Source: Candidatus Omnitrophota bacterium
GTDB lineage: Bacteria; Omnitrophota; Gorgyraeia; Duberdicusellales; 4484-171
Length of the DNA stretch: 64,000 nucleotides
Direction of reading: 5' to 3'
NCBI GenBank assembly: GCA_028692655.1
Contig: JAQUWY010000005.1
Location: 3,789-67,788 of the forward strand
Position 1 is the first letter of the stretch, and each line of letters starts with the position of its first letter. The translations under genes and the position numbers were made by a program. The notes under the pieces were generated by a model. That model saw only the letters and a program-made list of their open reading frames with translations, ran no database searches and was not told the DNA's origin. Below are positions 1 through 64,000 of the stretch, in pieces.

Positions 1-3000
1 TGAATCAGCCTCCAGCGAACAGGTAAGTGCCAGTTAATGAAATCTTCCATTACTTTTAATCCGATATCAAAAGCATCTTTATCACCTTCATAATTTCTTC
101 TATATTTTCTCCTGTATTCATTGATTACTTTTTGCTGTGCTTTTTCATTAGTCAACAAATCTAAACTGTCAACAAAAAGCCCCCTAATATCATCAGCGAT
201 TTCCTCAGATACCGCCATTAAGCTATGGTATTTACTTATTAAAGAATCAAAATCAGCTGTTCTTTCTGTTTTCTTTAATCTCAAGGTAATCAACTCTCTT
301 GATAATTGCCTTAATTTCTTCTTTTTGCTGTTATTAAGCTTAGCCTCTATTTCTTCTAATCTCTGCCTATAAGCGGGTGTTTCTCCCCGTTTTAAGCCAA
401 AAATAAACTTCCTGAAATCATCAAATCGTTCAGCTTCAGCTTCTTCTAATTTGTCCTTAATCAATTCTACCAAGTTTTGAATATGAATCGGATAGCGCTT
501 AGCCACATAATGGAAATTAGTATCTCTGTTGAATTCGCCCTGGTTTTCATCTTTGATCAAGCTAAGTGACTCAGCCATTGTGAAATAATAAGGGTTAATA
601 CCTCCGGCTGAGTGGAATTGAGTTCTGCTTAATTTTCGCTCAAAGCCTTCTAAGGCCGGTTTATTTCTAAAGTAATCTCTCATCCAGTCTAAAATTTCTT
701 TACGTACTCTTTTATCTTTAGGCTTAGGAATTCTTAGAGAGTGACGCTTGTTAATAACCTTTTCAAATTTATTATATTCAGCTACACTCATATATCCTTT
801 TTCAAGGCCCTCGCGCCGTAAATTCTCTAAGAATTCATCTTTATAAGTTATTCCTAAAGGATTTTTTCTCAAGGCATTAGGCTCCTCAGCTTTATCGTCA
901 TATAATATTACCCTTAAAGTTTTAGCTAATTCGCGCCCGCCTGAGCCACTCCATCTAAAAAACCAGCTATTTTTAAATCTTCTTCCGTGTTTTTCCTCTA
1001 ATTGATCTTTTCCCACTTTGTGAGAAATAATGCTGCCTATTATATCTCGGAACGAAAACCAAGTTAAAGGAAGCAATAATAACCAAACTATTCCGCCAAT
1101 AACAGCTGTTCCTAAAGCCATCGGTATACCGAATACTGTTAACTTCAAATAAGCAAGATAGATTATCGTCGCCAATAGAAGGGTGTTATAAAGAACCATG
1201 GCTACGTTTATTGTTCTCCAGGCAGCCTGGCCTCTTCTAGTCTGCAGGTCTCCGATAGTAGCCGGCGCACTTGTCGCACTTGAAGATTCTGAAGAAGCTA
1301 TGCGCTTTTTATCTAAAAACTTGTAAGCAGCAAAGCTTATGGCTACTGCCGCTAAGGCAGCTACCAGGCCATAAGCCAAATAACCAACTACACTAATGAT
1401 AATAAGCGGAGCGATTATAGATAATTTATCTCTTAATATCGGCTGCACTATTAAGCTATTGATAGTATTCCTTAAAAGCCTTATAAATGATTTCCAGCCA
1501 GTTCTCCAAATAACATATTCACCTTCATTTGTTCTTACTTTCCTGTCAGAGACTTCTTTCATGACTTTGGCTATTGCCAGCTTATCATTCTTGCTGCCTT
1601 CCATCTCTCCCCGGACTTCTTTAATCCTCTTTAAAAATGTTTTGATATCTACTGTATCTAAATCAAGAACGGTGCGCTCTTCTTTGGTTTCAGGGCCGGA
1701 AAGAAAGCCTAGTTCCGTAAATGGCTCTTCTACATACCTGAATAAATCATCGATATCTTCCTGCTGAAGCACATCTGATATACTTCTGTTTCCAAATGGC
1801 TTGATATTCTTAGCCCTAAATTCATCGTGTTCATTGGCTTCAAACTGGATAAGAGCCATAATGATAAATGCTAAATCACTTACAAAGCTATCCATTGCTT
1901 TAGCCGCTTCTTCAATCACTTTTCTCTGGTCTTCAGTTTTATCGGCTCTCTTCTTAGCCAGCTCAACCTGATAATGCCAACGTATAAGCTCGGTCATCTT
2001 AAAGGCATAACGTATAACCGGTGAACGGCTCATAAGCATTCCTAGGCCTTTGCTGGCGCTCCAAGTCTGGCCATATATTTTTTCAAATACTAAGTATCTT
2101 AGACCATAACGATATGGATTTTCAAAGCTCTTATCTTTACCAATCCATTCTTCTGAAGCTGCATTATTAATCTCATCTTGCTCAATAATTCTCCAATCAT
2201 CAATACGTACTTCTATAGTCTCATCCTTTTCTTTTCGCTTAATAGTATCTTGATATGGCACGATATGATATGGATGGATAAGAAGCTTGTTAGTGAACAT
2301 ATCAAAGATGTGATGCTTCATCATAATGGTTAAATCCGGCAAGCGGTCTCTTATTGCTTTTATCGAGTCATATTCTTTGATATATCTGTCAATTATCGGC
2401 TCAAATTTCTTCTCAACTATTTTTAAAGGAATCAAGAAATTAAGAGCGTTCATCTGGGCATCCATGTTAGAAGCAAGCAGCTCTTCAACTATTTTCCCAA
2501 GCTCATCTAAAGTAATCCAGCCTTCTTCTAAGGCTCTCATTACTAAGTCATATACTGCCGGCGCATAAGCACCTGAAGACATATGCGGCAATAAAGGTAC
2601 TTTTTTACTATTAACAACAACAGTAGCAACAGCAACAGCATCTTTAAATACCTTTATATCTGTATCTGGTTTTTTTATTAATTTTAACAATAAATTTAAT
2701 CTTGCTTTCCCGTTTTCTACTCTCTTGACTAACCACTCGCCTTTGTCATCTTCCACTGAGCTGCTTTCAAATGTAATTTTATTGGTATTAATACCTGCTT
2801 TATTAACATCATCTATATCCAAAAATCCTTTCTCTCTTCTCAAGGCTTTTATTTTATCTGCCTGGCCGCGGCCTAAGGCATCTACCAGCTCTCTATCAGA
2901 AGCTCTGTTGATATTCAGTTTTCCGGCTGCGCCCCTTATAGCTCCGTCTTTAACTCTTCCAATAGCAAAAGCATGCCTTAACATTCTTACTATTAAAATA

Positions 3001-21000: not shown

Positions 21001-24000
21001 TTAATTTTTGCGCGGACATCATCCTCGGCATTTTGCGAATCAACTGATGGCGTTGCCATTAACTTATCAACCGCTGCTTGCAATTGGTTTATTGCTTCAT
21101 TAGCTTTTTCAGATAACTTAACTGCTTCGTCTGCATTTACCTCTGCTTCTTTGGCTAAATTCTCGGCTTCAATTAGCGATACTTTAGTTTGTTCTACCTT
21201 TTCTTTGCCGGGAACTTCCCTTTCTTGTTGCTGGGCAAGCCTTTCATTGAGGCTAGTTTTATCTTTAACTAATTGGGCTTTTTTGCGGCTTAATTCTGCT
21301 ATTTGCGTTTTTATTTTTCTTATTTGTGATTGAATATGTTCAACTTTTTTAGTACCGCCTACGGATTCGGCCTGTACATATTCATAACGCTGCGTTGCAG
21401 CATTTCTTAATCCGGGAAAGATTGCTCCTTTTCCTCGTGAAGCCCTTCCCCTCGACCATCTAGCAAGCAAACCGTTGCGGACATATCCACCGTCAATAAC
21501 AACCTCTTTTTCTTCCGTCTCTTGAGCTTTTCTTAAACTTTCCTGTAACCTATCTAATCTTCCCTGCAGTTCCGATATTTTCGCAATTATCTCTTGTTGG
21601 CCTTCGTCCAAATCGCCCAATTTTTCTTTCAGTACTTCTGTTCCATTTTGCGCATCCTTCAAACTATTGTTTAAAAGCTCTTCTTCTCCCTTTAATTCCT
21701 CTACCCTATTCTTAAATTTTTCTGCTTCTGTAGCATAGATTTCGGCTTTCGTTTCCACATTATCAACTGCTTCATCCAAACCTTGTAAAGCTCTTTTTAG
21801 GTCTTCTTCTGCGGTTTTTACATCTATTATCGGTTTATTATCACTTTTAGACACTGATGGCTGGTGACGGGTAGCTGGTGTGAGTTTTTTATCTTCGGAA
21901 ATCTGCTTGTCCCGTGACAAAGTTTTTGCGGGTTGTGCGCTTTTTTCAGCAGCTGGTAATTTTTTCGCTGGCGGACCTATCGCAGGCGGTAACTTAATCT
22001 GAGGAGAAATGATAGGCCCTTGCTGAGTAGGTAATTCCAACGATTTTGATGATGTCGGCATAGCCGGCGCTATTGGCCCTTTATCTATCCCTGGCATTAC
22101 CGGTTTTACTTTTAACTCCGTAGATGTTTGAGCTGGTTTCGTTGGCTCTGCTTCAGGTTGTACTGGTTTAGTTTTAGCTACAGGTGGTTTTGGCTGAGTA
22201 GTTTTCGGGGCGGCCGGCCTCGCTACCGATGCTGGGACTGCGGCTTTCGCTTCTTTAGTTGCAGCTTTTCTAGCAGCCAATCTTTCTTCTTTGGCTTCTT
22301 TAGCCAATCTTGCCTTCTCAACGAGAGCTTCTTGGGCAGCTTTTTCTGCGTCCACTCTTTCTTGTTGGAGCCTTGCTGCTTCAGCTTGTCTGGCTGCTTC
22401 TTCTACGCGGGCTTTTGCGACAGCTTTCATTGCTTCGGCTTGAACAGCCTTTGCAGTAGAAACCGCCTCTTCTAAAGAATCGAATGAATGCTTGCCGGTT
22501 TTGTATTCATAGCCTATATAGATACTTATACTCGGGCCGGCACTAGTGGCTCTTGTTTCAGCCATAACTCTGGCCTGTTCTCTTTCTGCCTGACCCATAT
22601 TTAAGAACTCTTTGCCGCCGACACTGTAAGTAGCTTTTCTTTCTACTTTGATTCCTAAACCAGGATGTTGTGTGTCCACCCTTTCTTGCTCTTTCCGTAA
22701 AGCATCTGCGATTTTCTGTCTTTTCTGCTCAATTCTCTCTAGGGCTTTTTTGATTGTCTCTTTTATTTTATCTTTTACTTGGTGGCTAACTCTTTCATCG
22801 GTTTTGAAACTATTAATAATTTGTACTGCGCCATCAAAATTTTCATGGTCAACCGCCAAACTCAACGCTTCTTCCCAGCGGCTTTGCAATTGTTCCTGAG
22901 CTTTCCGGTCTGTTTCTGCTTGCTTTTCAGCATCTATTTTGCCTCTTAGCTTTAAGCCTCTGGCCGTTGAACCTTCTTTAGATTTAACCGGCTGTGTATT
23001 TTCACCAACCTCTAGTTTAACTGCCACCTCAAAGCTTTTGTTACGAGTTTTTTCTGGTTTGCTAACCATTACTTTTTTATTCCTAAGTTTAATTAAAGAA
23101 TTACCAATAGTCCCGGCTATTTGATCTTTATTTCTTTCTCCTACCATCGTAAGCTCAGGTTTGTTTTGGCCATCTACAACAACTGCAATATAAGGAATAC
23201 TTTCAACTCCATAACGCTGAATGACAGAAAGGTTACTTTCTTTATCTGCATCAACCCTAACCAAAAACACTTCACCCGGATAATCAGCAACAACTGCTTC
23301 AAGTTCAGGAGCAGTTTCTCTGCAAGGACCACACCACGATGCCCAAAAGTCTATTAAAATTACTCTTCCCTTTCCTTCTGCTCTGAGAAATTTATTCAGG
23401 GTAGTTAAACCTTCAGCATTAACAATATTGCTGCTTACCCCATCTATTCCGGAAATATCGTCAGCGGCTTGGCCAATATTAGTCAAAACCGGCGAAGCAA
23501 GTATCAGCGCTCCAAACAAACCAAGCACAACAGCTTTAAACACCGGACGGGCGGCAAGCCTTCCAAATACAGTAGAAGGGGTATATTTTTCTTCTTTTTC
23601 TTCGCTCAAGCCAAAATCCGAATGAATTTTCTCTTTCCCTCCTTCAGTAGTTGATGACAATACCCTCTTAGACCATGCCATATATTCAAAATCATCCGGT
23701 TGTTGTTCTTCTTCAACCTGTCCTGTGGCTTCCCCTTTTATTGTTTCTCGAATAGTGCTCCAATTTAGGTCAGATTTCCTTCTTTCTACCTCGGGCTTCT
23801 GCGCTTTAACAGCTTTGCTTATCAGCCAAATGGCCGTAACGGCCGCTAAAATAATTAAGGCCAATTTTGCCCACAAAGGCATTGTGGCCACAGCTACCGG
23901 TTTTGCCGCCCCCATTAAAAATGGTGTGATCCCTGTTAACATCAACGCCGAAATTTTGCTATGGACTGCTTGTCCTGAGCGAAGTCGAAGGATGGACTGT

Positions 24001-27000
24001 GAACTATCGACTGCCTTGGCGCTGCCGCGGCCAACCGCCATAGCCTGATCTACTGCAGATTGATGGGCATAGACAGGAATCCCCTCTAATCTGCGTAAAT
24101 CTGCGTTTCTTTCAATCTGCGCTAATCTGCGTCCCTCAGCTGAGATTAATATTTCTGACGTGATAGACTGGAGCGGCTGAGTAACACGCCTCAATTGACC
24201 TTTTGATATTTCCGGCCTCAGCTTCATCAAGGAGCTTGAAGTTCTCTCTAATCTGCTGTTTAACATCACCATAGGAGTTGATAAGGTAGTTTTCAATCCT
24301 GCCCCTACTGTCTCTTGCTGAGGCAAAAATCGTGCCGTCAGTTGTTCCAACCACGAAATGAGTGAAGATAAGTTTAGTAACCATGACAAACCTCCTTTTG
24401 ATTCGTATAGTGTATGTCGTATTTCGTATGTCGTTAAAGTTGCACTGGAGGCCCCCGTAGGGGTTTGGGGGGAGGCGTGGGAGCCTCCTGCAACTTTATT
24501 TCGTATGTCGTATATCGTATATCGTATATCGTTAGGTAAGGAAAGGATAGAAGAAGCCGCTTTACTAAGAGAGCTTTCTCCGCCTACACGCCGAGATTCC
24601 GCCACGGAAGAGCTTCGACGGGCAAGCATAGATAGACCCTTAGCAAGCGGCATTATACTTATTCGTGGAAATTTGCGTTTTATGTCTGCAGGTAAGGAAG
24701 ATACAAAAGACAAGATTTTTGTAAACTTGTAGCTTATAACATCTAACTTGTGACTTTTTACAGGCGGAGCAAGGCTGTTGGCATTATAATAAGAAGACGA
24801 ATCTCTTGCTTTTGCAAGATTAGTTAATATATTAAAAAGCTTTACTACTCTCTTCGGCAGAATTATCTTTTTGCTTGCCGAAGCGCCGCCATTACCTGAA
24901 CCTTTGCCGTTTCCAGAACCTTTTCCGCTGCCCGGAGCTTTTGAGTTACCGGACATACCACTAGCGCTTCCGGACGCAGTCTTCGCACTTCTAAAACCGG
25001 CATTTTCGCCTGATTTTCCTTGTAAAGAGCCTATTTTTCTTCTAATTTGACCAATTTTACGGCCAATAGTTACAAAATCAGCTTTGATTTTACCCTCTGT
25101 TGCCTTGATCCATCGCTGCGCAAAGGTAATCGCGCGACGGACCAACCCGACACCCGGCGAACCTGGGCCATTTATATAATCAAAACCTGACCGCTTGTTG
25201 GCTTCTGTTGACGATAAGTCAAAGGTTGTGCTCCAAATAGCTTTGCCTACCGGAGCCGCATAAGCATCGGCAACGGTAAACATTCCTTTTATGCCTTCAT
25301 AAAACGTATTTGCTGCTCCTAATATTAATATTGTCATTGGCTTTGGCCCGCCTAAAGGAGCGCTTGGCGGTAACGGCAATGTTATGGGCCTGGTTAAAGG
25401 CGGCAAAGCAAATGGCATACCTGTATCATATATTATGGGTTTTTCCGGGCCCAAAGGCGTTGCTGAAGTAACTATCGAAGAGCCTACCGGGCTTTGATCA
25501 GCTTGATTTAGGCCTAAAGCCTCATCTACGTTTATGCCTAAATCCCGGGCTTTTTTCGCCGCCTCATCCATATTATGTTTTGCCGTACTTAAAGACAAGG
25601 CTCCTTTTTCGCCTTTTTGGGAAGCTATATAATCAGAATAGGCATTTTTTAGTGACTGTCTAGCTGACATTCGCTCAGCACTCTCTGCCATATTATGAAC
25701 TGTACCGGCGGCATCGGAGCTAGCAACATCAACCGCACCGGTTCTGGATAAAGCCTCAGTTAAACCGTGCTCTAATTCTGCTAAACCGGCATCTTGAGCT
25801 AAATAGACAGTGTAAGAACCGTCACCGTTGGCCAGAGTAATTTCTTTATCGCCGCGAGAAGTAAGTTGTTTAGCGCTTAATCTCACAACCTTTACCGGAG
25901 CGATTGCTTCAAACTTATTAGCCCTCTCCTGTATATATATAGGTAAGGAGATTTCTTCAGATTCTGCAATCACCTGTTTGGCTTCATCAATATCTTTTTG
26001 GGCCATTCTTCCTTTTTGCCCGGCACCAGCGGCAAATGGATCATCGTCGGACAAAGTTGTTGTATGAGCGCCTTTCTTTGGGCCAGTTTCAGGTAATCTT
26101 TCTGACGGCTGAAAAGCCGCTCTTTCTGCTAAAACTCTCTCCACCAAAGCTTCAAAAGAATCCGGGGGCACTTCTCCATAAAGTTTATCGTCTAAATCGG
26201 TTACTTTAGATAGGAGCTCTCTGAACTTATCTAAAATTCGACCTTCAACCTCCACGCCTTTGTTTTTAGCTTCACCGAAGACAGACTTTAATTCCTTATG
26301 TAAATCTAAATCGGGGTAACCTGCTGAATCTTGCCGTTGACGCTCAATATCATCTAATACTTCCTCAATATATTCAGTCCAATAGACGCTCTCATCTCTT
26401 TCACTAGCTGTCAAATTGCCCTCTTGTGCTTTTTTATTTCTTATCTGCTCAGCAACCTCAGAAAATTCTTCAGCATCACTGTCAATAAACTCATCCGGCG
26501 TAAACTCACCTAAAATAGCTTCACCCCGGCGTAACAATTTGCCTAAACCGACAGCTTTGGCGATGAAATCTTTTTCTGGCATATCCTGGATTTGAAGAAC
26601 TTGCGGCAAGTCTTCTTCTTCGCCCAGAACTTCGAATTCGCGTAGAATTTCTGTCCTGGCCGCGGCGCTGTCCCTAAATGTATCATTTCCTTCTATAGCT
26701 ATGCCCAGCCAGCGCATAAGTGAATTTAATTCGGCTAAATTACTCCGGTACGCGTCATCAGATAAACTCTGGCGAATATCCGTTATTCTTTTCTCGGATT
26801 GTTTAATAGCTTTTTGTATATCCGAAATTTTTTGTTTCAGCTCTTTTTCTCTTGTAACCGCCTCAAGTTGCTCATCAGCTGCTTCTGAACCATAGAATGA
26901 ATCTATAGCGACAGGTTCCATCGCTTTTTCTGCCAGTTGCCTTTCTATAGCTTCCTGCTCTTTCTCTAACCGTTTTTTTGCATCAGCCCAAGCTCTGCTT

Positions 27001-42828: not shown

Positions 42829-43158
42829 TTAGTCGAATTGACCCCGCTCTTTTGGCGGAAGTCCTATAGTTAAACTGTGCTCCAAACGCCGTTTTAAATG
42901 ACCAATCGCGCTTCCATGATGTTTTAACTTATTTTCACGTTTGACCGCATCGCGTTTATCTAAGTAAGCCTCGTAATAAATCAATGTAAGCGGCCGGCGA
43001 TCCTTAGTAGAAGCAACTTTCCCTTTATTATGGGCTTTTATACGTGTTTCAATACTTTCGGTATCTCCCACATATATTTTTTTGTCTGTCTGGCTTTTAA
43101 GTATATACAAATAATGCATTGTATCTGCTCCGCCAAAAGGGCGGGGTTTTTCGGCCAT
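42829..43158 (-). CDS. GIY-YIG nuclease-superfamily small protein (109 aa).
   Basis: MAEKPRPFGGADTMHYLYILKSQTDKKIYVGDTESIETRIKAHNKGK...RENKLKH carries the GIY ... YIG ... R ... E ... N pattern. Confidence 0.8.
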   Translation of the reverse strand: MAEKPRPFGGADTMHYLYILKSQTDKKIYVGDTESIETRIKAHNKGKVASTKDRRPLTLIYYEAYLDKRDAVKRENKLKHHGSAIGHLKRRLEHSLTIGLPPKERGQFD

Positions 43159-43159
43159 A

Positions 43160-43215
43160 CGGCCTCAAAAAAAAAGAGCCGGATTACCATTTAGAATTTC
43201 GGTAACCCGGCCATC
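43160..43215 (-). terminator. Hairpin + U9 tract immediately upstream of the SD/ATG of the GIY-YIG gene.
   Basis: Minus strand: GGCCGGGTTACC-gaaattctaaat-GGTAATCCGGCTC TTTTTTTTT GAGGCCGT ATG. Confidence 0.45.
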
Positions 43216-43254
43216 CTTTTCTTGTTTAACTTATACGCAAATCTTCACAAATTA

Positions 43255-43400
43255 CACTCGAATAGACACGAATAAACTAGTTTACTTAGTGTTTCAATTC
43301 GTGCTCATTTGTGTGCAATTCGTGTTCATTCGCGTTTCTAGGACCCGTGGCTTTGCGCCTCTCGATTACTCGAGATTTGCCTTTTTCGTTTCCTAACACA
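43255..43400 (-). promoter_or_regulatory. Upstream leader module, copy D (upstream of the GIY-YIG gene). Partial: CAATTCGTG/CATTCGCG direct repeats + core + one hairpin.
   Basis: cattcgcgtttctaggacccgtggctttgcgcctctcgattactcgagatttgcc. Confidence 0.5.
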
Positions 43401-43639
43401 AGATGCTAATGCACTAAAAATATAACATATAATGTATATATAAGTCAACAAAAAAGTGAAGAAAATCGATGATTTTGTAAACGGTTCGAAAAGGGTTGGT
43501 TTGAGTTTTACTTTGATACAAACAAAATATAACACACAGCTGTCATATTATAAGCCCTTTGAAATATATTGTTAACTATTATGGACGAAAACGCTCGTAA
43601 CTTCCTTGAAAGCTTATATTTGTGCAAATGTTTTGTATA

Positions 43640-45613
43640 TCATCTCGGGGCTCTAATGGCTCCTTGCCGTAATAAAGGGCTCCCTTTTAGCAGGATAACA
43701 TTTGAGCTTCCTATTGCTTGGACATCCTTTTCCTGGTCAATTTGATACATACTGGGCATTTGTGCTTCTTCGATAATGCTTACCCTGGGGACCTTATTCA
43801 AATCATCATAGACAATTTCCATCTCAGGCGTCACAAGCATCTGCTCTATTTGCTCTCCTGAAATTCCCAGGGTGTTGACCACACCAGCCCTTAGCTCATC
43901 GCTAACGTTGATTACACTCTTATAATTTATTGCCTTACCTGAACCATTTACCGGAACAGCATAAGTTGAATTTTTGATTAAATTAGAAGTGCTGTATGAG
44001 CTATTTGAAATTTCATCCTGCCTTAGATTAGCCAATTGTTTGAATGCCGGACTTAAAGCCTTCTGCATTTTGGCCAAATCAGGGCTTCCCAGCTTATCGG
44101 AAACCCGGCTTAAGCGGTTAAAAGAAACTTTAAGTTCAGAATTCAAGGCTTCTTTAAGGGGTAATTCTTTAAGTTTTAAATCAGCTAATTTGCTGAAATC
44201 CGAAGCTATTTTTGCCGCGTTGTGTTCATCAAAATTATTTCTTTTTAGCTTCTCAGAAGATATTTCTGCCAAGCGCGAAAAATCATTATTCATCTGATAA
44301 GGCATAGTATAGTCCCTTGTAATACCGGCAAGATCCATCAATTCCGGATCGATTATTTCCTGTGAATCAAAACCGCCGGAGGCAAGCTGTGAAATGTCTT
44401 GTGATAAATCCGCCAAGCGAGTCATACTGGAATTTTCCCGGCTTAAGCGTGACAAATCCGGTTTTAATTTGTTTTCTAAATTGTTGATTCCGGCAAGTCT
44501 TTGCAGTTTTGAATCAAAACTCTTAGGGCTTAACTCCCGCAAAGAACTGCGGGTATTAGCAAGAGAAATAGTTTCTCTTTGCGCCAGGCCCTGGAGCCTA
44601 TTTATATCGGGGCTCTGAAACGCGGCTCTTGTTGGCCTTTGAACATTGACCCTGTCAACCATTCTTTGGATTTTTGTTTCTAAGTTATTTACCGGATTCT
44701 GGTTTGTTCTGGCTAATTTTTCCAGCTTATCCAGAGTCTTTGATTTATCCAATCCTAATGCAGGTTTTTTGGCGTTTGTCCTATCAGCCAACTGCTGCAT
44801 TCTATCTTCTAAATTACCTGGCCTCTGGCTGGTTTTGGTAGGTTTTTGCGTCTTGGCCATAGAGGGTTTTTCAGCACTATCGGCTATTTTTTGCTGCTGC
44901 TTATCAGCCAAAGCTTCTGCTCTCTGTCGAGATTGCTCAAGGTTATTCTTCTTCGCTAAGTCATTTTTTTGAGATTGAGGATTGAGCTTTTCACTATCTG
45001 TTGCGTGATTTTGCGTAAATGTTTTCTTGGCTAAATCAGGGACAGAGGGCTGGCCACCAGGAGGATTCTGTTTAAGTTTAGCGAATGCATCCGGTCCATA
45101 ATCTGTCCCGGTTTTGGTTTTAGAACCTGTGGCCAAATTACCTCTACCGGCTGAAGCTGCAGGCGTTGCATTTCTTGCAGTAGTAGCTGAACCAGTCCCG
45201 GGGCTTTTAACTTCACTGGAAGCAGCCGCGGCTTTTCGAAAATTCTCCCATTGATTCTTAAACTGTTTCTGAGCACTTTGAGCAGTAGACGCTATTGCCC
45301 CATAAACGGCTTTAGAAGCGGCCTTGGCTTGTCCGGGCGTTATTCCTCCGCCTATTGATTTCACATTAACTATTGTATCCCCATCGCCAGGACCATTTCC
45401 TACCTCGGGTACTGTTATGCTACGGGGACAACTCTTCGGCGCAGGTTGACAGAATCCATAATTCAAAAAGACAAAACTCAATAGCACCGAACATAAACCC
45501 ACCACAATAATTTTTCTAAGAGTTTTAAGTTGTGGCTTTTTGCTTCTTATGTTCATACCAGCCGTCCTGTCAAAAAAAATAGGGAAGCTTTCGCCTCCCT
45601 TTATATCTTCCAT
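43640..45613 (-). CDS. Membrane-anchored / secreted low-complexity repeat protein (657 aa; repeated ..SRLA.. / ..LxRLAx.. units).
   Basis: Track ORF. It has an N-terminal TM helix (IIVVGLCSVLLSFVFLNYGFC) and Ala/Lys/Gln-rich repeats related to the KPSFxKxAN family. Confidence 0.7.
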   Translation of the reverse strand: MEDIKGGESFPIFFDRTAGMNIRSKKPQLKTLRKIIVVGLCSVLLSFVFLNYGFCQPAPKSCPRSITVPEVGNGPGDGDTIVNVKSIGGGITPGQAKAASKAVYGAIASTAQSAQKQFKNQWENFRKAAAASSEVKSPGTGSATTARNATPAASAGRGNLATGSKTKTGTDYGPDAFAKLKQNPPGGQPSVPDLAKKTFTQNHATDSEKLNPQSQKNDLAKKNNLEQSRQRAEALADKQQQKIADSAEKPSMAKTQKPTKTSQRPGNLEDRMQQLADRTNAKKPALGLDKSKTLDKLEKLARTNQNPVNNLETKIQRMVDRVNVQRPTRAAFQSPDINRLQGLAQRETISLANTRSSLRELSPKSFDSKLQRLAGINNLENKLKPDLSRLSRENSSMTRLADLSQDISQLASGGFDSQEIIDPELMDLAGITRDYTMPYQMNNDFSRLAEISSEKLKRNNFDEHNAAKIASDFSKLADLKLKELPLKEALNSELKVSFNRLSRVSDKLGSPDLAKMQKALSPAFKQLANLRQDEISNSSYSTSNLIKNSTYAVPVNGSGKAINYKSVINVSDELRAGVVNTLGISGEQIEQMLVTPEMEIVYDDLNKVPRVSIIEEAQMPSMYQIDQEKDVQAIGSSNVILLKGSPLLRQGAIRAPR

Positions 45614-45881
45614 TAATTTGTCCCATTATCCTCCACGGACTTCGCATAAATTTACCCCGCGCTTATCTTTTCCGTGGCTTTTACCGCACCCCCTGCGGCA
45701 CTATATTTACAAAGAACTTCTGTATTTTAGTATAACACTTCCTTGTTAAAAAAGTCAATGTAGTTTATATATAAATTGTAAGCGTTTTCAATAGGTTTCT
45801 CTTATTTAAACTCGGAAATTCCAAAAACGCCAACCGCCAATAATCACACCTCTATTTATTCCAATGCTACGGAAATACGAT

Positions 45882-45912
45882 ATTACCAAAAAATGACGAT
45901 GCGGGTTCGTCA
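45882..45912. terminator. Bidirectional terminator-type hairpin (A-tract-hairpin-T-tract), downstream of 46059..46862. Copy 1 of a repeated element.
   Basis: ccaaaaaATGACGAtgcgggtTCGTCATttttttgg. Confidence 0.55.
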
Positions 45913-46058
45913 TTTTTTGGTTTATTGATATAACTTGCGACTTACGGACTATAACTATAGCTTGTAATGCTTAACATTTCCGTTTGCCAATCTGGACAAT
46001 AATAATTATAACATTCTATTTTAAAATTAGTTATAAAAACTATTTGTTATATTTCTCT

Positions 46059-46957: not shown

Positions 46958-48028
46958 TTAATATTCATAAGCAAAGAAAATCGGCCTTCCTTCTGCATTA
47001 ATTCCTCCCATAACTTCATAAATCCTGCCATTTTCTAAAATTCTTTGCAATTTCGGCTCTTTTGTAACTGAAGTCAATTTACCAATATTACTGGTTTCTA
47101 TCTTGGCTAATGCCCAAGCTAAAGCGGCTTCGCGGTTATTAGGAAAATTGCTTATTGCCAGCTCTGGCCTAACTACTTCCCCCTTAACGCCTCTGGCATT
47201 AACGAATTCTTCTAAACCTGTAATTTTAACAGGGTAGCTCACACTCTGGCCTAAATCACTGGGAGATTCAGAAACAAACTCAGCTTTTTTAATTAAAGAG
47301 TCAGAGCCGCGATTAAAAGAAGCAAAAATATTGAGCTCATCAAGGGTTGTTTTATACTCCCTCTGACTGCCCCATTCAATGGTATCCCCATTGCCATAAC
47401 CTACTAAAACATTCAAACCCTTCTGGGAAAGAAAAGTATTTGCTGCTCCATACTTGCCCGTATCCCTGTCATAGACTTCATAAACATTGCGGCCCTGTTT
47501 ATCTTTAGTCGCGTAAATTACCACTTCCTTTCCGGTATGGGTATCGGTTACTTCTATTTGAGAAATACCCTCTCTCGCATCTCTATAGCGCTGAGTATCT
47601 ACCTCAATAACTTCCTTATATCCCTGTTGTTTTGATGACTCCTCATAGGCTTTCCGGGAAGCAATCTCAGGATTAATACTGCTTCTCCTATAATTTGGAC
47701 CAAACCAATTCTGGTATTGTTTATGCCTGGAAGCCTCTGCTTTGCGCTCATCAGGAGTCCAGTTGTTTTTAGATTGACGAGTATTCTGGCCTTGGGAAAC
47801 CGGTGCAGAATTTGACACGCTTCTTTGACTAACCACATGCCCGGAAGAAGATTCTTTGGCATTTGGCTGTGATGTGCCGGAATTATATGACACCTGTTGG
47901 TTATTGTTATATCTTTGCCCTCTGAAAGATCTCAAAAGACCCCTCGCTTGAGCTTGCTGAGAAAAAACAGAACATAAAAGAACTAAAACCGATACAACTA
48001 GTTTTATTTGTGATTTATACTCACACAT
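46958..48028 (-). CDS. Secreted hypothetical protein (356 aa). Paralog of 46059..46862.
   Basis: It has a signal peptide and the shared block VTDTHTGKEVVIYATKDKQGRNVYEVYDRDTGKYG..GYGNGDTIEWGSQ. An AGGGGAGGCAGAT SD precedes the ATG. Confidence 0.7.
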   Translation of the reverse strand: MCEYKSQIKLVVSVLVLLCSVFSQQAQARGLLRSFRGQRYNNNQQVSYNSGTSQPNAKESSSGHVVSQRSVSNSAPVSQGQNTRQSKNNWTPDERKAEASRHKQYQNWFGPNYRRSSINPEIASRKAYEESSKQQGYKEVIEVDTQRYRDAREGISQIEVTDTHTGKEVVIYATKDKQGRNVYEVYDRDTGKYGAANTFLSQKGLNVLVGYGNGDTIEWGSQREYKTTLDELNIFASFNRGSDSLIKKAEFVSESPSDLGQSVSYPVKITGLEEFVNARGVKGEVVRPELAISNFPNNREAALAWALAKIETSNIGKLTSVTKEPKLQRILENGRIYEVMGGINAEGRPIFFAYEY

Positions 48029-48057
48029 ATCTGCCTCCCCTTAGATTGAAACCGCTT

Positions 48058-48105
48058 ACAAAAATAAAAAACCGGGTTGCCTTTTTAGGAATTTCGGCAA
48101 CCCGG
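48058..48105 (-). terminator. Terminator-like hairpin + U-tract on the minus strand, placed between leader module A and the SD of 46958..48028. Candidate attenuator or expression platform.
   Basis: Minus strand: CCGGGTTGCC-gaaattcctaaaaa-GGCAACCCGG TTTTTTATTTTTG, then ..AAGGGGAGGCAGAT ATG. Confidence 0.5.
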
Positions 48106-48107
48106 CT

Positions 48108-48330
48108 GACCTATCTTACAGACTGCATGAATTTAAGCAAGATTACCCATTTTTTTACTGGGTTTTCTCTTATAAATCTGCGATCATCTGCGTTTCTTTC
48201 AATCTGCGCTAATCTGCGCCTAAAAGGTCCCGTGGTTTTGCCCAGCATTGCAATAAATTCAATGCCGGATCACAACACATATTTATATGTGCCGGACGTC
48301 TCCCGATTACTCGGGATTTGCTCTTATCGC
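48108..48330 (-). promoter_or_regulatory. Conserved ~225-bp upstream leader module, copy A.
   Basis: Minus-strand order is three hairpins, the GGCAAARCCACGGGACC core, then 4x CGCAGAT (plus-strand ATCTGCG at 48176, 48186, 48202, 48212). It is ~95% identical to copy B except inside the hairpin stems, which differ by compensatory changes. Confidence 0.7.
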
Positions 48331-48367
48331 CTCCCCAACGATAATCACAATTTATCAAATTATAAAA

Positions 48368-49495
48368 CTATTCTTCCTCAGCAGCAATAAAAGCTTTCAG
48401 AGCAAGATTGTCTATTTCCTGGCGTAATTCATCATCTCCCGGCTTTAAAGTCAACTGTGCGGAATCTATAATATCCGCACTCTCCTCCAGTATATTTATA
48501 GGCTCTTGTAATTGTATGTCATCTAAAGCGGAAATATTTGGTATAAATCTATCGGATACAGGGGCTTTAGAAAGTAAATTCTTAGGTATAGCCAATTCAG
48601 TTAAGCCTGTGCTTCGGTTAGATAAGCTCTTCATAGACACATCCTGTATAGACGAAAAGCTTTCACTTATATTTGATAAATCCTTAAAAGATGGCTTAAG
48701 CTCTCCAGACATGCCCGGGCTTATATTAGCCAAATTGATAAAAGAAGGCCTTAAGCCCACATCTAAAGAAACTGTTCTGGCAAGATTAGTAAACGCCTGG
48801 CTTAAACCACCGGAAACTGCCGGGCTGATATTAGCTAACTTTGTAAAAGAAGGTTTCAGGCCTGAGGCAAAAGCCGGGCTTAAGCTTGCTAACTTTGTAA
48901 AAGAAGGCGAAAGCCCCTCTGCCATAGCTGGATTTAAATTTGCCATTTTGGTAAAAGAAGGTGAGAGCTTCGGAGTCATGCCCGTGCCTAATTGGCCTAA
49001 GCGGCTAAAAGAGCTCTTGAGTTCATCTGCCTGAGGCCTTGAATTGGATGACGCCAAACGCTCAAAAGAAGAGTTAATGGCTGCTTTTGAAACTCCCGGG
49101 GCCATATCTGCAAGCTTAGTAAAGGAGGGTTTCAAATACACACTATTCATCTGGGGGTTAACCCCCGCCAGCCTGCTAAGCTCAGGTTTAATCCCGGCAT
49201 TAATACCTTTTTCGCTAAAACCGCTTAAACGGTTTAAACCGGGTTTGAGTTCCGTCTGAATTTGTTTTCCCTTTTCAGCTAAACGCTCAAGGCCTGGCTT
49301 AATAAATTCTTGCGTGTTGTATGTTCCTTCTTCGGCAAACTGGCCAAAACGGGAGTTGAGGTTTCCCAAGCGGTCCATCTGTTCAAACCTGTCCCAACGG
49401 TCAAAACCGCCCCAGGCATCTGCCCAGGCTGAGTTCGCCCCAGCACAAATCACAAACACCACTGCAAATACGCCAAACGCCTTTATTATTTTCAA
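48368..49495 (-). CDS. Secreted repeat protein (375 aa; TTG start). It has 17-aa repeats LKPSFTKLANISPAVSGG and a C-terminus ..LALKAFIAAEEE.
   Basis: Track ORF. Signal peptide MKIIKAFGVFAVVFVICAGANSAWA. The repeats were seen directly. Confidence 0.75.
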   Translation of the reverse strand: MKIIKAFGVFAVVFVICAGANSAWADAWGGFDRWDRFEQMDRLGNLNSRFGQFAEEGTYNTQEFIKPGLERLAEKGKQIQTELKPGLNRLSGFSEKGINAGIKPELSRLAGVNPQMNSVYLKPSFTKLADMAPGVSKAAINSSFERLASSNSRPQADELKSSFSRLGQLGTGMTPKLSPSFTKMANLNPAMAEGLSPSFTKLASLSPAFASGLKPSFTKLANISPAVSGGLSQAFTNLARTVSLDVGLRPSFINLANISPGMSGELKPSFKDLSNISESFSSIQDVSMKSLSNRSTGLTELAIPKNLLSKAPVSDRFIPNISALDDIQLQEPINILEESADIIDSAQLTLKPGDDELRQEIDNLALKAFIAAEEE

Positions 49496-50242: not shown

Positions 50243-50282
50243 TTTCTGCCTCCCCTAAATTAACTTTGCTGTTCGTTTCCAA

Positions 50283-50325
50283 AAATAAAAAGAGCCGCTC
50301 TCTATAATAATATGAGGCGGCCCGG
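50283..50325 (-). terminator. Terminator-like hairpin + U-tract between leader module B and the SD of 49571..50242.
   Basis: Minus strand: GCCGCCTC-atattattatagaga-GCGGC TCTTTTTATTTTTGG, then ..AGGGGAGGCAGAAA ATG. Confidence 0.45.
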
Positions 50326-50535
50326 CCAACCTATCTTACAGACTGCATGGATTTAAGCAAGATTACCCATTTTTTTACTGGGTTTTCTCTTATAAATCTG
50401 CGATCATCTGCGTTTCTTTCAATCTGCGCTAATCTGCGCCTAAAAGGTCCCGTGGCTTTGCCCAGCACTATAGTAAATTAGGTGCTGGATCGCGGCACAT
50501 ACTTATATGTGCCGGACGTCCCAGAATTTCTTCTG
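50308..50535 (-). promoter_or_regulatory. Conserved upstream leader module, copy B (upstream of 49571..50242).
   Basis: Aligned by eye to 48108-48330. Hairpins: cagcactatagtaaattaggtgctgg, cggcacatacttatatgtgccg, cccagaatttcttctgg. Confidence 0.7.
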
Positions 50536-50796
50536 GTTTGCCTTTATCTCTTTTACCACATAAATATAACACATTTTTTTGCTTGCGTTAAGCCCTTTTT
50601 AGAAAGAATTGATAACGGTTTCACGGTATATTTGCAATTAGCCTCCTAATTTACTTAATCATAACTACCGCAAAAGTTATTAATAAGTTTAAGCTATAAT
50701 CATAACATTTTAGGACAATAATGTTTATAAAATACTGCAAAAAAATAAGTTATGAATATATTTTATAACAAAAATGCATTATTTTACCCCAAAAAT

Positions 50797-50826
50797 GACG
50801 ATGCGGGTTCGTCATCTTTGGTTAAG
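50797..50826. terminator. Copy 2 of the ATGACGA..TCGTCAT hairpin, downstream of the TadC-like gene.
   Basis: ccccaaaaATGACGAtgcgggtTCGTCATctttgg. The minus-strand reverse complement ends in TTTTTGGGG. Confidence 0.5.
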
Positions 50827-50828
50827 CA

Positions 50829-50876
50829 ATTTATTTCTATGTATTTCCATATATTTCTACCGTATTTCTACTAAAG
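50829..50876. repeat. GAAATA-phased repeat element, copy 1 (reverse complement of 62492-62549 and 62616-62671).
   Basis: atttatttctatgtatttccatatatttctaccgtatttctactaaag. Confidence 0.7.
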
Positions 50877-50898
50877 AATAGATTATGATTTTTCTCAA

Positions 50899-59821: not shown

Positions 59822-60409
59822 TTAATTACCTTTAGCCTCACTTAAAGCAGCTGCCTGCTCTATTTTTATTAATTTTTCAGCTATATTAAAATCTGCCTGA
59901 GCTGCTTCACGGTCACCGTAATAATCATAAGCAAAGCCTCTTTCCATATAATCCTGTGAGTCCTGTGGTTGTTTACTTAAAACTTCGTTATAATAATTAT
60001 CCGAAAGTTCCTTGCGGCCTATTGCCCCTTTTTCATCAATACTGTCAACATAGCCCTGAGCCGTCCTGGCATTCTCCTTATCGCCGGCGGCCTCATATAT
60101 TTCTTGAGCTCTTTGAAAATTCTCTCTGGCCTCAAGCGGCCTGTCAAAATAAGAGTTAGCAAAACCTTTAGCCATATAGTCTTCGGCGGTCTGAGCTTCC
60201 GCTTCTAAAACACCTTGATAATAATCTTGCATATAGTCATCCGCGTCCCCAAAGCTTTGGCTTTCATCGGCTATTTCTTCTACCGCTTCATCTCCATAAT
60301 TATCAAAACTACCCTGCATAGTAGCCATTACTGCGCCTATACCTACGGTAGTGAACATAGCCGCTACTAAAATATATTCCAAGGTTGACTGACTTTTCTT
60401 AAATATCAT
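59822..60409 (-). CDS. Pilin-like N-terminus (MIFKKS|QSTLEYILVAAMF) fused to a TPR-like C-terminal domain. The track ORF extends to 60478.
   Basis: The C-terminal DYMERGFAYDYYGDREAAQADF is paralogous to the lipoprotein 53160..53513. Confidence 0.55.
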   Translation of the reverse strand: MIFKKSQSTLEYILVAAMFTTVGIGAVMATMQGSFDNYGDEAVEEIADESQSFGDADDYMQDYYQGVLEAEAQTAEDYMAKGFANSYFDRPLEARENFQRAQEIYEAAGDKENARTAQGYVDSIDEKGAIGRKELSDNYYNEVLSKQPQDSQDYMERGFAYDYYGDREAAQADFNIAEKLIKIEQAAALSEAKGN

Positions 60410-60489
60410 TTTTCTTACTCCAAATAAAAAAGGGCTGCCTTTGTCTATTTTAAAGAAGACTTTCGGCAGCCTGGTCATCCTCGACGCTA

Positions 60490-60670
60490 ATTATCGCTAA
60501 TCAAACGCAAATAACTGCTAATATCTTATTCGCGTAAATTAGCATTGATTCGTGTCCATTCGCGCTTTAAAGGATCCGTGGCTTTGCCACAGCACAACAA
60601 TTAATTCTGTGCTGGGTCTCGGCATATACTTTTATATGCCTGACGCTCTAGAGTTTCCTCTAGTTGGCCT
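60490..60670 (-). promoter_or_regulatory. Upstream leader module, copy C (upstream of the pilin operon). GCTAAT-type direct repeats replace CGCAGAT.
   Basis: The core cattcgcgctttaaaggatccgtggctttgcc and three hairpins (cagcacaacaattaattctgtgctg; ggcatatacttttatatgcc; ctctagagtttcctctag) are present. Confidence 0.55.
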
Positions 60671-60765
60671 TTTCGTTGCCTCCCCTGATACCACCTTAAT
60701 ATACCATAGATAATATAGGTATTTCAAGCCAGCAATCACCCCTTGGTGAAAACGTTTTCATTGGT

Positions 60766-62491: not shown

Positions 62492-62549
62492 CTTTAGTAG
62501 AAATACGGTAGAAATATGTGGAAATACATAGAAATAGATTGTTTAGATA
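62492..62549. repeat. GAAATA-phased repeat element, copy 2.
   Basis: ctttagtaGAAATAcggtaGAAATAtgtgGAAATAcataGAAATAgattgtttagata. The motifs sit at 10-11 bp spacing. Confidence 0.7.
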
Positions 62550-62550
62550 A

Positions 62551-62880
62551 AATTCCAATAATCCCAATACTACCAATACTACCAAATAAATCCCAAATCC
62601 AAAATTCCAAACATTCTTATAGAAATACGATAGAAATATATGGAAATACGTAGAAATAGGTTGTTTAGATATGGGTGCAAAGAGAATAGACTGCTTTGTT
62701 TAGAATTTAGGATTTTGAATTTGTTTAGAGTTTAGGATTTAGAATTTTTTTAATCTTTGCCTTAGCCTTTGCCTATACCCGTTTCTATCAGCTTACAACT
62801 TATAGCTTAAAGCTGTTTCTGTTTGGGATTTTGAATTTGGGATTTGGTATTATTGGGATTTTGGATTTTCTGGTGTACTG
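62551..62880. repeat. Imperfect inverted-repeat pair of GGATTTTG/CAAAATCC-rich low-complexity DNA (62551-62616 versus 62821-62880). It flanks GAAATA copy 3 and a CCTTAGCCTTTGCC motif.
   Basis: The reverse complement of 62821-62870 resembles 62560-62612 at about 70-75% identity. Confidence 0.4.
62616..62671. repeat. GAAATA-phased repeat element, copy 3.
   Basis: cttataGAAATAcgataGAAATAtatgGAAATAcgtaGAAATAggttgtttagata. Confidence 0.7.
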
Positions 62881-62916: not shown

Positions 62917-64000
62917 TTATTCCGATTCTGCCGCAAGCAGTGCACGCAAAGAAATATTACCAGAACCATCGCTATTATCCTTGTTATCAGAGGGTTTAAT
63001 TATTATCGTTCCCGGCTGAAGAGAGCGATTATCACTTTGTAAAACTTTTATCGGAGCTTGAGTAGAAAGTCCTTGAGTTTGATTAGGGTTTAGCTCCAAA
63101 ACATTGGCGCTGCTTTGGATTAAGCTGCTTAAACCCTGGATTCCATCAGCAGAAACTTTAAAGGTAAACTGCTCCTGGCCAATTTTTAAAGGAGCTTTAG
63201 CAATAATTCTTTCTTGGGAAGCAAGGTTAACAAACGAGGGCTGTATGGCAACTCCCATCTGTTTGTTGGCTTCGGCTAACCTACCTAGAGAAGGGCTCAA
63301 GCCAGCCTGCATTTTTGGATTAAGAGCCCCCAGGCGAGAAAATGGTGAATTAAGTTTGCCATTCATAGCCGGATTAACATTAGCCAACCGGGTAAGTGAA
63401 GAATTTAGGCCTCCTGACATCTTCGGGCTTAGTTCCGCCATTCGACTAAAACCAGACTTTAGCGCTCCTGTCATATTGGCGTTTATATTTGCCATTTTGG
63501 TAAAAGAAGGGCTAAGCTGGCCGCCTAAAGTTGGATTTACATCCGCCATTTTAGTAAAAGCGGGTTTCAAGCCTGCCGACATAGAAGAAATATTAGCCAT
63601 GCGCTCAAAAGAAGGCTTAATCATACCTCCCATAGCATTTGTATTGGCCATACGCTCGAAGGCAGGGTTTACTGCGCCGCTGATACCTGAGCTTATATTA
63701 GCCATTTTCTCAAAAGAAGGTTTAATCATACCTCCCATATTTGAACCGATATTGGCCATTTTAGTAAAAGTAGGTTTAAACTCTCCGGACATGGAAGAAT
63801 TTAGATTAGCCATTCTCTCGAAAGACGGCTTTACCATCCCTCCCATACTAGAACCAATGTTGGCCATTTTCTCAAAAGAAGGCTTAATCATTGCCCCCAT
63901 AGAGCCAGGATTAGCCATTCGTTCAAAGGCAGGCTTTACCATACCATTCATGTTTGAGCCAATATTGGCCATTTTTTCAAGTGCCGGGTTAGCAACACCG
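62917..64000 (-). CDS. KPSFEKMAN-repeat secreted-protein family member. 3' end complete (TAA 62917-62919); the 5' end runs off the window.
   Basis: The track lists 62917..63972 as '+', but the protein MANIGSNMNG...LRALLAAESE is only obtained from the reverse complement. The stop is the reverse complement of tta at 62917-62919. There are 17-aa repeats MIKPSFEKMANIGSxMGG. Confidence 0.75.
   Translation of the reverse strand, partial: GVANPALEKMANIGSNMNGMVKPAFERMANPGSMGAMIKPSFEKMANIGSSMGGMVKPSFERMANLNSSMSGEFKPTFTKMANIGSNMGGMIKPSFEKMANISSGISGAVNPAFERMANTNAMGGMIKPSFERMANISSMSAGLKPAFTKMADVNPTLGGQLSPSFTKMANINANMTGALKSGFSRMAELSPKMSGGLNSSLTRLANVNPAMNGKLNSPFSRLGALNPKMQAGLSPSLGRLAEANKQMGVAIQPSFVNLASQERIIAKAPLKIGQEQFTFKVSADGIQGLSSLIQSSANVLELNPNQTQGLSTQAPIKVLQSDNRSLQPGTIIIKPSDNKDNSDGSGNISLRALLAAESE

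Follow-up and report, generated by a model that had tools for sequence, protein, structure and literature searches.

The window analysed here, i.e. the whole 64,000-nucleotide stretch of DNA from a Candidatus Omnitrophota bacterium, contains a leader module that recurs ahead of several genes, which raises the question of what kind of RNA it encodes. An initial annotation had regarded the module as a candidate cis-regulatory RNA present in several copies, and the repetition is real: four minus-strand leaders, designated W43, W48, W50 and W60, follow one shared plan of ~270 nt (coordinates of the leaders and their parts refer to this strand). We propose that they are class I cyclic-di-GMP riboswitches (GEMM-I, or c-di-GMP-I) joined to intrinsic terminators, an assignment that rests on sequence comparison and to which we give a probability of about 0.85.

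The element at 48060-48336 (W48) has the layout of a complete riboswitch, comprising a 5′ flank, an aptamer with two expansions, a terminator and a U tract; it scores 124 bits with R1, a covariance model of the insertion-bearing 5′ half. Its paralog W50 (50281-50554) carries both expansions as well, and consists of P1 (50518-50541), two further hairpins termed A (50489-50517) and B (50462-50488), an array of CGCAGAU heptamers (50396-50438), a terminator (50294-50321) with its U tract (50281-50293), and a promoter-like site (50563-50591). The two are 88% identical across 233 nt (48096-48328 versus 50316-50548). W60 (60422-60683), located before Flp-type pilin genes, contains the same insertion in the P1 loop and a cassette of CRCGAAU/AUUAGCG repeats; its parts are P1 (60645-60668), hairpin A (60616-60644), hairpin B (60587-60615), the cassette (60475-60575), a terminator (60433-60471) and a promoter-like site (60698-60727). 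The fourth leader, W43 (43167-43391), has the canonical c-di-GMP-I junction and a CRCGAAU cassette, with 5′ heptamers at 43297-43334, anti-repeats at 43236-43273, a terminator at 43178-43211, a U tract at 43167-43177 and a promoter-like site at 43419-43448. Copies at 60490-60670 and 43255-43400 had been described as partial; instead, both belong to complete riboswitches equipped with other repeat cassettes, of the CRCGAAU type.

The core motif CAAARCCACGG occurs exactly four times in the window (43345, 48230, 50450 and 60576), and when one mismatch is allowed there are seven matches versus 1.5 expected, a number reached in none of 100 shuffles. A second motif, the 3′ box CCRGGYTRCCGAAA, has exactly three occurrences, in W43, W48 and W60. 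Full leaders are predicted to fold much more stably than shuffled sequences, with z values of -5.2, -8.1 and -5.7.

The family was identified through Rfam, a search of which had been suggested in the initial annotation. The search covered the window, an 18-kb region and a 306-nt element, at gathering and permissive thresholds. W43 matches RF01051 over the whole model with 58.2 bits (gathering score 35), and 121 extra nt are accommodated at the second hairpin's tip. The best result for W48 in Rfam 15 (306-nt query, lax filters) was a misaligned, partial match to RF03168 of 21.4 bits (threshold 65.9), while W50 (29.7 bits) and W60 (18.1 bits) gave sub-threshold, partial matches restricted to the first hairpin. 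These three copies escape the Rfam models because of an insertion of ~56 nt in the P1 internal loop. A T-box, a protein-dependent attenuator and other RNA families were considered and rejected: Rfam gave only matches to the c-di-GMP-I clan, with the rest at chance level, and no tRNA-related elements were found.

Relatives (L-numbered loci) were collected with one scan of genomes and one of metagenomes, the pattern being the core and, 100-130 nt beyond it, the 3′ box. This yielded 31 loci, mostly of Omnitrophota; the scan demanded a P2 insert of 100-130 nt and gives no frequency of cassette-free Omnitrophota riboswitches. The orthologous loci comprise L010 (MAG SO_2016_LW1_69) and contigs prefixed Ga0172381. 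Other routes to orthologous leaders were unproductive: a search for homologs of the 356-aa protein controlled by W48 returned only the protein itself, and the Logan contigs of the same organism (exact-protein look-up) end 59-133 nt upstream of the genes, i.e. inside the riboswitches, and gave no new leaders. Seven relatives with the canonical junction (L004, L012, L013, L015, L016, L022 and L028) score 42-60 bits on RF01051; L014, of the same junction type, falls below the threshold, and the long-P2 relatives L009, L016(-), L017 and L024 score best on the c-di-GMP-I-GGC model.

With the P1 insertion and the P2 tip cut out in silico, the cores of W48, W50, W60 and of the orthologs L010 and L029 align without gaps to those of Rfam-validated relatives. 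In the resulting alignment of 11 cores, 96.7% of the pairs of the canonical GEMM structure are standard, a value reached by none of 500 shuffles (slid controls, 27-45%), although excision of the insertions by hand biases the alignment towards that structure. The AAA linker between P1 and P2 is invariant (11/11). The P2 helix has a bulged A and 12 pairs, with 97.7% pairing; both partners of one pair are altered (A-U, U-A, C-G), and G-C/G-U/A-U exchanges are seen too. As defined by Weinberg 2007, GEMM RNAs have a P1 of 2+6 bp with a GNRA loop, which an AAA linker joins to a P2 of variable length, and the 3′ part of P2 competes with a terminator (PMC1950547). The leader elements match this definition, save that the P1 internal loop is interrupted: in W43 a short 3-nt internal loop sets off the 2-bp P1 base from the 6-bp stem, and in W48, W50 and W60 this arrangement is broken by the insertion.

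The architecture of this insertion can be followed in W48. P1 (48298-48321; G-C, AAA, 6-bp stem, GUAA tetraloop, 6-bp stem, GAC) is canonical up to the 3′ side of the internal loop, with all six stem pairs covarying. It is followed by hairpin A (48269-48297; GUCCGGCACAUA-UAAA-UAUGUGUUG-U-GAU) and hairpin B (48242-48268; CCGGCAUUG...CAAUGCUGG), both supported by covariation, and then (48226-48241) by the GC that closes the 2-bp P1 base, the AAA linker and the P2 5′ strand ACC-A-CGGGACC. The insertion thus amounts to 56-57 nt between GAC and the closing GC-AAA; it is present in W48, W50 and W60 and missing from W43. Within the P1 internal loop it occupies the 3′ side, and only two base pairs separate it from the ligand pocket. 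In the three expanded copies the 5′ side of the loop reads AAA (CAA in W60), the 3′ GAC/AGC is kept, and the GC...GC base can pair; W48 has a GUAA tetraloop, the other two GAAA. Each copy had been credited with three hairpins, which holds for W48, W50 and W60; W43, with its canonical junction, lacks two of them. The three hairpins seen originally correspond to the canonical P1 plus two hairpins of one insertion.

The compensatory stem changes reported from the window copies persist in an alignment of five sequences (W48, W50, W60, L010 and L029), where 13 of the 27 pairs are altered on both sides: 6/6 in P1 (100% paired), 3/12 in hairpin A (98% paired) and 4/9 in hairpin B. Taken together, 97% of the cells in P1, A and B are standard pairs, compared with 26-49% when the partner strand is slid, and none of 500 shuffles reaches this value; the five sequences come from two or three closely related genomes and fall into three groups of paralogs, and template switching can also yield clustered compensatory changes. 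The stem of hairpin B in W50, W60 and the ortholog L029 differs wholly from that of W48. Three unrelated hairpin B stems occur within otherwise similar contexts. An R1 search of 237 kb revealed no further copies apart from a related architecture in L023, a locus of an unrelated G+C-rich organism, in which ~150 nt are inserted at the identical P1 site. Expansion at this site is thus recurrent.

The terminator-like hairpin that had been placed ahead of the ribosome-binding site also withstood inspection. In W48 the intrinsic terminator (48060-48105; -22.8 kcal/mol) consists of the stem CCGGGUUGCC / GGCAACCCGG with a 14-nt loop, followed by a U tract (48060-48071); the hairpin proper (48072-48105) is G+C-rich, contains 10-12 bp and was missed by the terminator scan because its loop is longer than 8 nt. 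Downstream lie the Shine-Dalgarno sequence GGGGAGGCAGAU and the ATG at 48028 (together 48026-48040, minus strand) of a gene for a 356-aa orphan secreted protein (46958-48028). The P2 3′ strand with the C92 equivalent (AGGUCAGCCGGGUUGCC, 48096-48112) shares positions 48096-48105 with the 5′ arm of the terminator. This double use recurs: the sequence (G)CCGGGUURCC forms both the P2 3′ strand plus C92 region and the terminator 5′ arm in 4/4 window copies and in 9/11 other sequences, the latter including the orthologs L010, L028 and L029. A P2-overlapping terminator with a U tract is thus found in 13 of 15 elements (the exceptions being L013 and L014), its stem measuring 7-15 bp, about 12 in most. 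The predicted energies of the 66-nt downstream segments range from -18 to -30 kcal/mol, and the minimum-free-energy fold of the full leader contains the terminator.

Since the P2 3′ strand is at the same time the left arm of the terminator, aptamer and terminator should be mutually exclusive. In the absence of ligand the terminator would form and transcription would halt ahead of the gene; with ligand bound, the aptamer would keep the P2 3′ strand and RNA polymerase would read through. The leaders are therefore probably ON switches, as judged from this overlap. Control of transcription termination by a cis-acting RNA, as originally suspected, agrees with the above-threshold Rfam match of W43, the fit of the excised cores of the other three copies, the terminator overlap in all four and the promoter-like sites ahead of three of them.

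Sigma-70-like sites with TG right before the -10 hexamer are located 10-30 nt upstream of W43, W50 and W60. The upstream scan detected no promoter-like site belonging to W48 itself, which starts ~30 nt past the stop codon of the preceding gene. W48 is probably a second, operon-internal checkpoint after W50.

W50 and W48 lie before genes for orphan secreted proteins. W60 heads pilin-like genes with class III signals (Flp-type), followed by a TadE/G-like gene and two T2SS-F (TadB/C) genes, while downstream of W43 come a small GIY-YIG ORF and, after it, a giant ORF that exceeds 14,257 codons and leaves the window. Among the relatives, riboswitches are placed before homologous N-termini of giant genes (H-P-x-FKPWMRVVAF...LYQD) in at least five Omnitrophota loci, L004, L012, L015, L016 and L031, and before pilin-like ORFs in L006, L010, L013, L014 and L018. 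The riboswitches probably activate operons for pili, secreted proteins and giant genes, which would bring the Flp/Tad-type pilin genes, the giant surface-protein gene and the orphan secreted proteins under cyclic-dinucleotide control. In published work on Omnitrophota, a Tad/T2SS-like locus is described beside giant genes, with PilZ and GGDEF nearby, and peptide counts of giant proteins are higher in attached cells. These papers make no mention of riboswitches, and our literature search for these expansions or for Omnitrophota riboswitches found nothing, which is not proof of absence.

The second expansion extends the tip of P2. In W48 its 5′ arm consists of four CGCAGAU heptamers at a spacing of 10/16/10 nt (48176-48218), and the remainder (48113-48175) comprises a hairpin at the apex (48145-48163) together with a 3′ arm that is degenerate (AUCUUGC, AUUCAUGC, AGUCUGU). 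The fourfold repeat and its spacing had been recorded correctly in W48 and W50; however, the repeats are not a separate array downstream of the hairpins, as first assumed, but sit inside aptamer stem P2. CGCAGAT is strongly over-represented in the window, with 22 copies versus 5.5 expected (0/100 shuffles reach 22), and 12 of the 22 fall in three arrays of identical 10/16/10 spacing. In general form the extension is a cassette of ~100-134 nt, in which four CRCRRAU heptamers with a ~10-nt period are followed by about four complementary heptamers. We found it in the window copies and in L004, L010, L012-L016, L022, L028 and L029, and two heptamer classes, CGCAGAU and CRCGAAU, occur within one genome. 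At most loci the two arms are complementary and form one long interrupted hairpin; W48 and W50 are atypical, having perfect 5′ heptamers and a decayed 3′ arm.

The third array of the 10/16/10 type (24089-24131, minus strand) is solitary: this set of four CGCAGAU heptamers, as an array 93% identical, lies inside a giant ORF with no aptamer. A relic riboswitch was considered here, and the resemblance to the riboswitch copies is limited to the 44-nt 5′ array. Together with 24658-24677 it represents the 5′-arm arrays of the window found outside riboswitches; free-standing arrays are also present after the L015 terminator and at position 9967 of L032. Pfam gave no match for the 82-aa ORF beside the solitary array or for the surrounding segment of the giant ORF. 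No target-site duplication around the cassette was seen by inspection.

Comparison of paralogs and orthologs revealed an unusual pattern of divergence. The cassettes of the paralogs W48 and W50 are 97.6% identical with flanks at 58-70%, and those of the paralogs L028 and L029 are 80.5% identical with flanks at 46-60%. Between orthologs, the W48 and L029 cassettes share 54% (downstream sequence, 98.7%), those of W43 and L028 65% (flanks, 95-96%), and those of W60 and L010 98% (flanks, 81-87%). As these identities indicate, the P2 cassettes evolve in concert within a genome. Both expansions occupy places able to accommodate them, and we take both, the P2 cassette included, as peripheral to ligand sensing.

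The cassette may be a functionless, mutation-driven palindromic repeat, lodged where alone the aptamer can absorb additional length and arising by slippage, intra-strand template switching and gene conversion among riboswitch copies; we give this explanation a little less than an even chance. It is P2 whose length varies across the family (PMC1950547), and L016(-), with a plain P2 of 68 nt, resides in the same genome as a cassette-bearing riboswitch. At the same P2 site other lineages carry unrelated tandem repeats (CAGNAGG in L023, AUCAGGG in L024) or non-repetitive inserts (L006, L009, L017, L018 and L031). Two comparisons were aimed at telling an RNA-level role from a DNA-level one: a sense-strand (G-U) bias is not consistent, the folding energy of the sense minus the antisense cassette averaging -2.1 kcal/mol with mixed signs, and nested covariation, taken repeat by repeat, is inconsistent (62/77 positions paired in the nested register and 66/77 in the parallel one, which does not discriminate). 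Moreover, cassettes common to paralogs and not to orthologs are the expected signature of gene conversion. Against this, the four-unit, ~10-nt design recurs in at least eight distinct Omnitrophota loci of small streamlined genomes, and the W60 and L010 cassettes are better conserved than their flanks. The perfect 5′ heptamers of W48 and W50, retained beside a decayed 3′ arm, and the 44-nt array standing alone suggest selection on the sequence, and not on pairing only.

The nucleotides G20, A47 and C92 contact the ligand (PMC6140456); to locate them, we used the consensus lines that Rfam gives for its GGC and UAU variants. Equivalents of A47 (in W48, the first A of the AAA linker) and C92 are present in all four window copies. 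In the gap-free core alignment, W43, W50 and W60 have G at the G20 position, whereas W48 and its ortholog L029 have A; in W48 it is the last base (48322) of the 5′ flank GGGGAGGCGAUAAGA (48322-48336). Because of this A, the ligand of W48 may be c-di-GMP, cGAMP or both. For W48 and its ortholog only, a more specific proposal is that the aptamer senses 3′,3′-cGAMP, or cGAMP together with c-di-GMP, in the manner of GEMM-Ib RNAs, in which case the operon would be gated in series by two signals, by W50 (G20) first and then by W48 (A20). The two sequences read AAGAGCAAA where L012 has AAGGGCAAA, and all other aligned copies have G; the G20A change confers dual c-di-GMP/cGAMP binding on Vc2, and natural A20 aptamers bind cGAMP (PMC6140456). 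However, A20 RNAs often still hold c-di-GMP tightly and A20 alone is insufficient for cGAMP selectivity (PMC6140456), the change is confined to two closely related sequences, and no cGAMP synthase is known in this organism. We regard this proposal as unlikely.

A further explanation of the repeats treats the heptamer array as an RNA- or DNA-level platform for a trans-acting factor specific to the genome. Binding at every helical turn, this factor would supply the riboswitch with a second input or co-ordinate the cassette-bearing transcripts. With a period of ~10 nt, all sites would lie along the same helical face, and the contrast between W48/W50 and W48/L029 fits a factor particular to each genome. 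The 5′ array remains perfect where complementarity has been lost, its 10/16/10 spacing and spacers are kept at three sites of which one is aptamer-free, and free-standing arrays exist in L015 and L032. These observations have to be set against the lack of any candidate binding protein, the adjacent 82-aa ORF having no Pfam match, and against the coexistence of the CGCAGAU and CRCGAAU classes in one genome. Furthermore, gene conversion alone explains the concerted evolution, and the complementary arms, which fold at most loci, would hide single-stranded sites. We consider such a platform rather improbable. The same applies to the most far-reaching scenario, in which the cassette would be an array for a genome-specific factor (protein or RNA), the cassette leaders and the solitary array of the giant gene would be co-ordinated, each riboswitch would integrate two inputs, a cyclic dinucleotide and this factor, and the P1-loop hairpins and A20 would tune the choice between c-di-GMP and cGAMP.

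Finally, W48, W50 and W60 could be decayed riboswitches whose ligand binding was destroyed by the insertion, leaving constitutive or protein-controlled attenuators, as their escape from Rfam and the occupation of a loop highly conserved in the family (PMC1950547) might imply, but this is very improbable, given that three paralogs and their orthologs keep the canonical stems, which show compensatory changes, and the contact nucleotides (with A at position 20 in W48 and L029), that compensatory change has also preserved the two inserted hairpins, that the overlap of terminator and aptamer is conserved and that the distant lineage L023 has an insertion at the same site.

Part of this picture is already known, i.e. 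the c-di-GMP-I family itself, of which W43 is an ordinary member. What appears to be new is (i) the two-hairpin insertion in the P1 loop, which hides copies from Rfam, (ii) the periodic P2 cassette and its concerted evolution, (iii) the A20 copy, and (iv) the conserved link of these riboswitches to Omnitrophota giant genes and pili. Covariance models miss expanded members of a riboswitch class deemed well covered (3/4 copies at one locus), and predictions of regulons in candidate phyla are therefore incomplete. The P1 internal loop is a highly conserved 3-nt feature of the GEMM family (PMC1950547), so the insertion could perturb the pocket; located two base pairs away from it, the insertion constitutes a natural experiment on the tolerance of the junction and possibly on the tuning of specificity. 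The proposed control would place the Tad-type pilus and the giant genes, invoked for the predatory or episymbiotic lifestyle of Omnitrophota, under a cyclic dinucleotide, and it makes giant-gene regulation testable by simple RNA biochemistry, with no culture needed. Cassettes common to paralogs and swapped between orthologs represent an unexplained case of concerted evolution within a functional RNA.

The closest known systems are the c-di-GMP-I riboswitches (RF01051), whose prototype is Vc2 of Vibrio cholerae. The leaders share with them the 2+6-bp P1, the GNRA tetraloop, the AAA linker, a P2 with a bulged A and equivalents of G20 (A in W48), A47 and C92. Both are also linked to genes for pili and the cell surface, and W43 belongs to this type without any peculiarity of its junction. 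A terminator competing against the 3′ part of P2, as in these leaders, was present in 78 of the 322 original GEMM RNAs (PMC1950547). Unlike typical c-di-GMP-I riboswitches, W48, W50 and W60 carry the ~56-nt two-hairpin insertion in the P1 loop and score below the threshold, the P2 of these leaders bears a periodic heptamer cassette of 100-134 nt, the host belongs to the Omnitrophota and giant genes are among the targets.

The GEMM-Ib riboswitches of Geobacter, which respond to 3′,3′-cGAMP, resemble W48 and L029 in the A at the G20 equivalent, and have a comparable terminator-based ON design. Their targets are pili and cell-surface genes. However, they come from another phylum and contain neither insertion. 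The variants c-di-GMP-I-GGC (RF03167) and c-di-GMP-I-UAU (RF03168) share the fold of our elements and vary it in sequence; they are defined by substitutions at three contact positions, whereas W48, W50 and W60 differ by architecture and have canonical contacts except for A20 of W48. The cassette, in turn, recalls REP/BIME, BOX-type and MITE-like repeats, being near-palindromic, multi-copy, ~100 nt in length, homogenized within a genome and present in transcribed leaders. In contrast to those repeats, no terminal inverted repeats with target-site duplications were seen, the location of the cassette at the end of an aptamer stem is fixed, and each arm has four spaced heptamers.

In the riboswitch-controlled gene behind W60, one of the four minus-strand c-di-GMP-I riboswitch leaders, the mechanically called start of ORF 59822-60478 (-), an ATG at 60478, falls within the 3' strand of the aptamer's P2 stem. 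The true start is almost certainly the ATG at 60409, MIFKKSQSTLEY..., which lies downstream of the W60 terminator and of a GGAG Shine-Dalgarno sequence (SD) and gives the protein a Flp-like class III signal peptide.

A 109-aa ORF with a GIY-YIG domain (42829-43158, minus strand; Pfam E=1.9e-16) is placed between the terminator of the W43 riboswitch and a giant gene, and is retained in the orthologous locus L028. The giant ORF itself occupies positions 1-42773 (-) as one uninterrupted frame exceeding 14,257 codons, running past the start of the window, and is a typical Omnitrophota giant gene. Its start is likely near 42731 (MNYQEGRK...), where the signal-anchor-like FKPWMRVIAFFVLFCFVYQD follows. 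The only Pfam matches were a thioredoxin domain (~23105-23381) and a weak HATPase_c match. Within this ORF, the segment 24040-24700 (-) has a non-coding appearance, yet the frame stays open. The segment carries, on the minus strand, a solitary array of four CGCAGAT units (24089-24131), tandem CGATATA/CGACATA repeats (~24440-24530) and a two-unit CGCAAAT/CACGAAT array (24658-24677), together with an 82-aa ORF (24136-24384) that lies in a frame other than that of the giant ORF, has a strong AAGGAGG SD and gave no match in Pfam. The segment could have arisen as an intergenic region that the ORF absorbed, or by an in-frame insertion.

Secreted orphan proteins encoded at 48368-49495, 62917-63972 and 43640-45613 (-) are made up of 18-residue repeats of the KPSF(T/E)K(L/M)AN type; the 54-nt period of their genes was seen in the repeat search (families D1, D2 and D5), and none of these three proteins of the window matched Pfam. 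Directly 5' of the SD (GGAGGAUAA) of a 657-aa gene stands a hairpin, CCACGG...CCGUGG (45640-45700, minus strand), which has the CCACGG word in common with the riboswitch core and shows no further aptamer feature.

Periodic arrays of a second type, consisting of four (G/A)TAGAAATA units spaced 11 nt apart, were matched three times, against 0.14 expected. The array at 50831-50880 (-) precedes the W50 promoter by about 250 nt; the other two (62497-62540 and 62618-62660, plus strand) are in the intergenic region at 62.2-62.9 kb, which also contains GAAAAACC-type repeats. The arrays are candidate regulator binding sites. Two different operons are closed by near-identical terminator hairpins (45885-45921 and 50795-50815), which on the minus strand read ATGACGAACCCGCATCGTCAT followed by a run of T.

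Short-read contigs of the window's organism (L001, L002 and L034; Logan assemblies SRR22315505 and SRR22315506) all stop 59-133 nt upstream of riboswitch-controlled genes, within the riboswitch or the heptamer-repeat cassette at its P2 tip, in keeping with the cassettes being repeats present in several copies, at which assemblies break.

In an Acetothermia MAG (L003, ~428-610, minus strand), the match of the gapped search pattern spanned a tandem pair of complete c-di-GMP-I aptamers. Two Omnitrophota riboswitches, L015 (~1567-1640, -) and L016 (~2346-2410, +), have two additional hairpins directly 5' of the ligand-contact position G20, i.e. the same junction is expanded as in W48, W50 and W60, but on the opposite strand. 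Directly past the L015 terminator there is, in addition, a CGCGAAT/ATTAGCG cassette that stands free (~1230-1348). The unrelated lineages of L023 (4513-4830, +) and L024 (3713-3874, -) have tandem-repeat hairpins of other sequence at the P2 tip, the site of the window cassettes: L023 has CAGNAGG heptamers there, and its P1 site too is expanded, by an insert of ~150 nt, while L024 has (A)ATCAGGG units.
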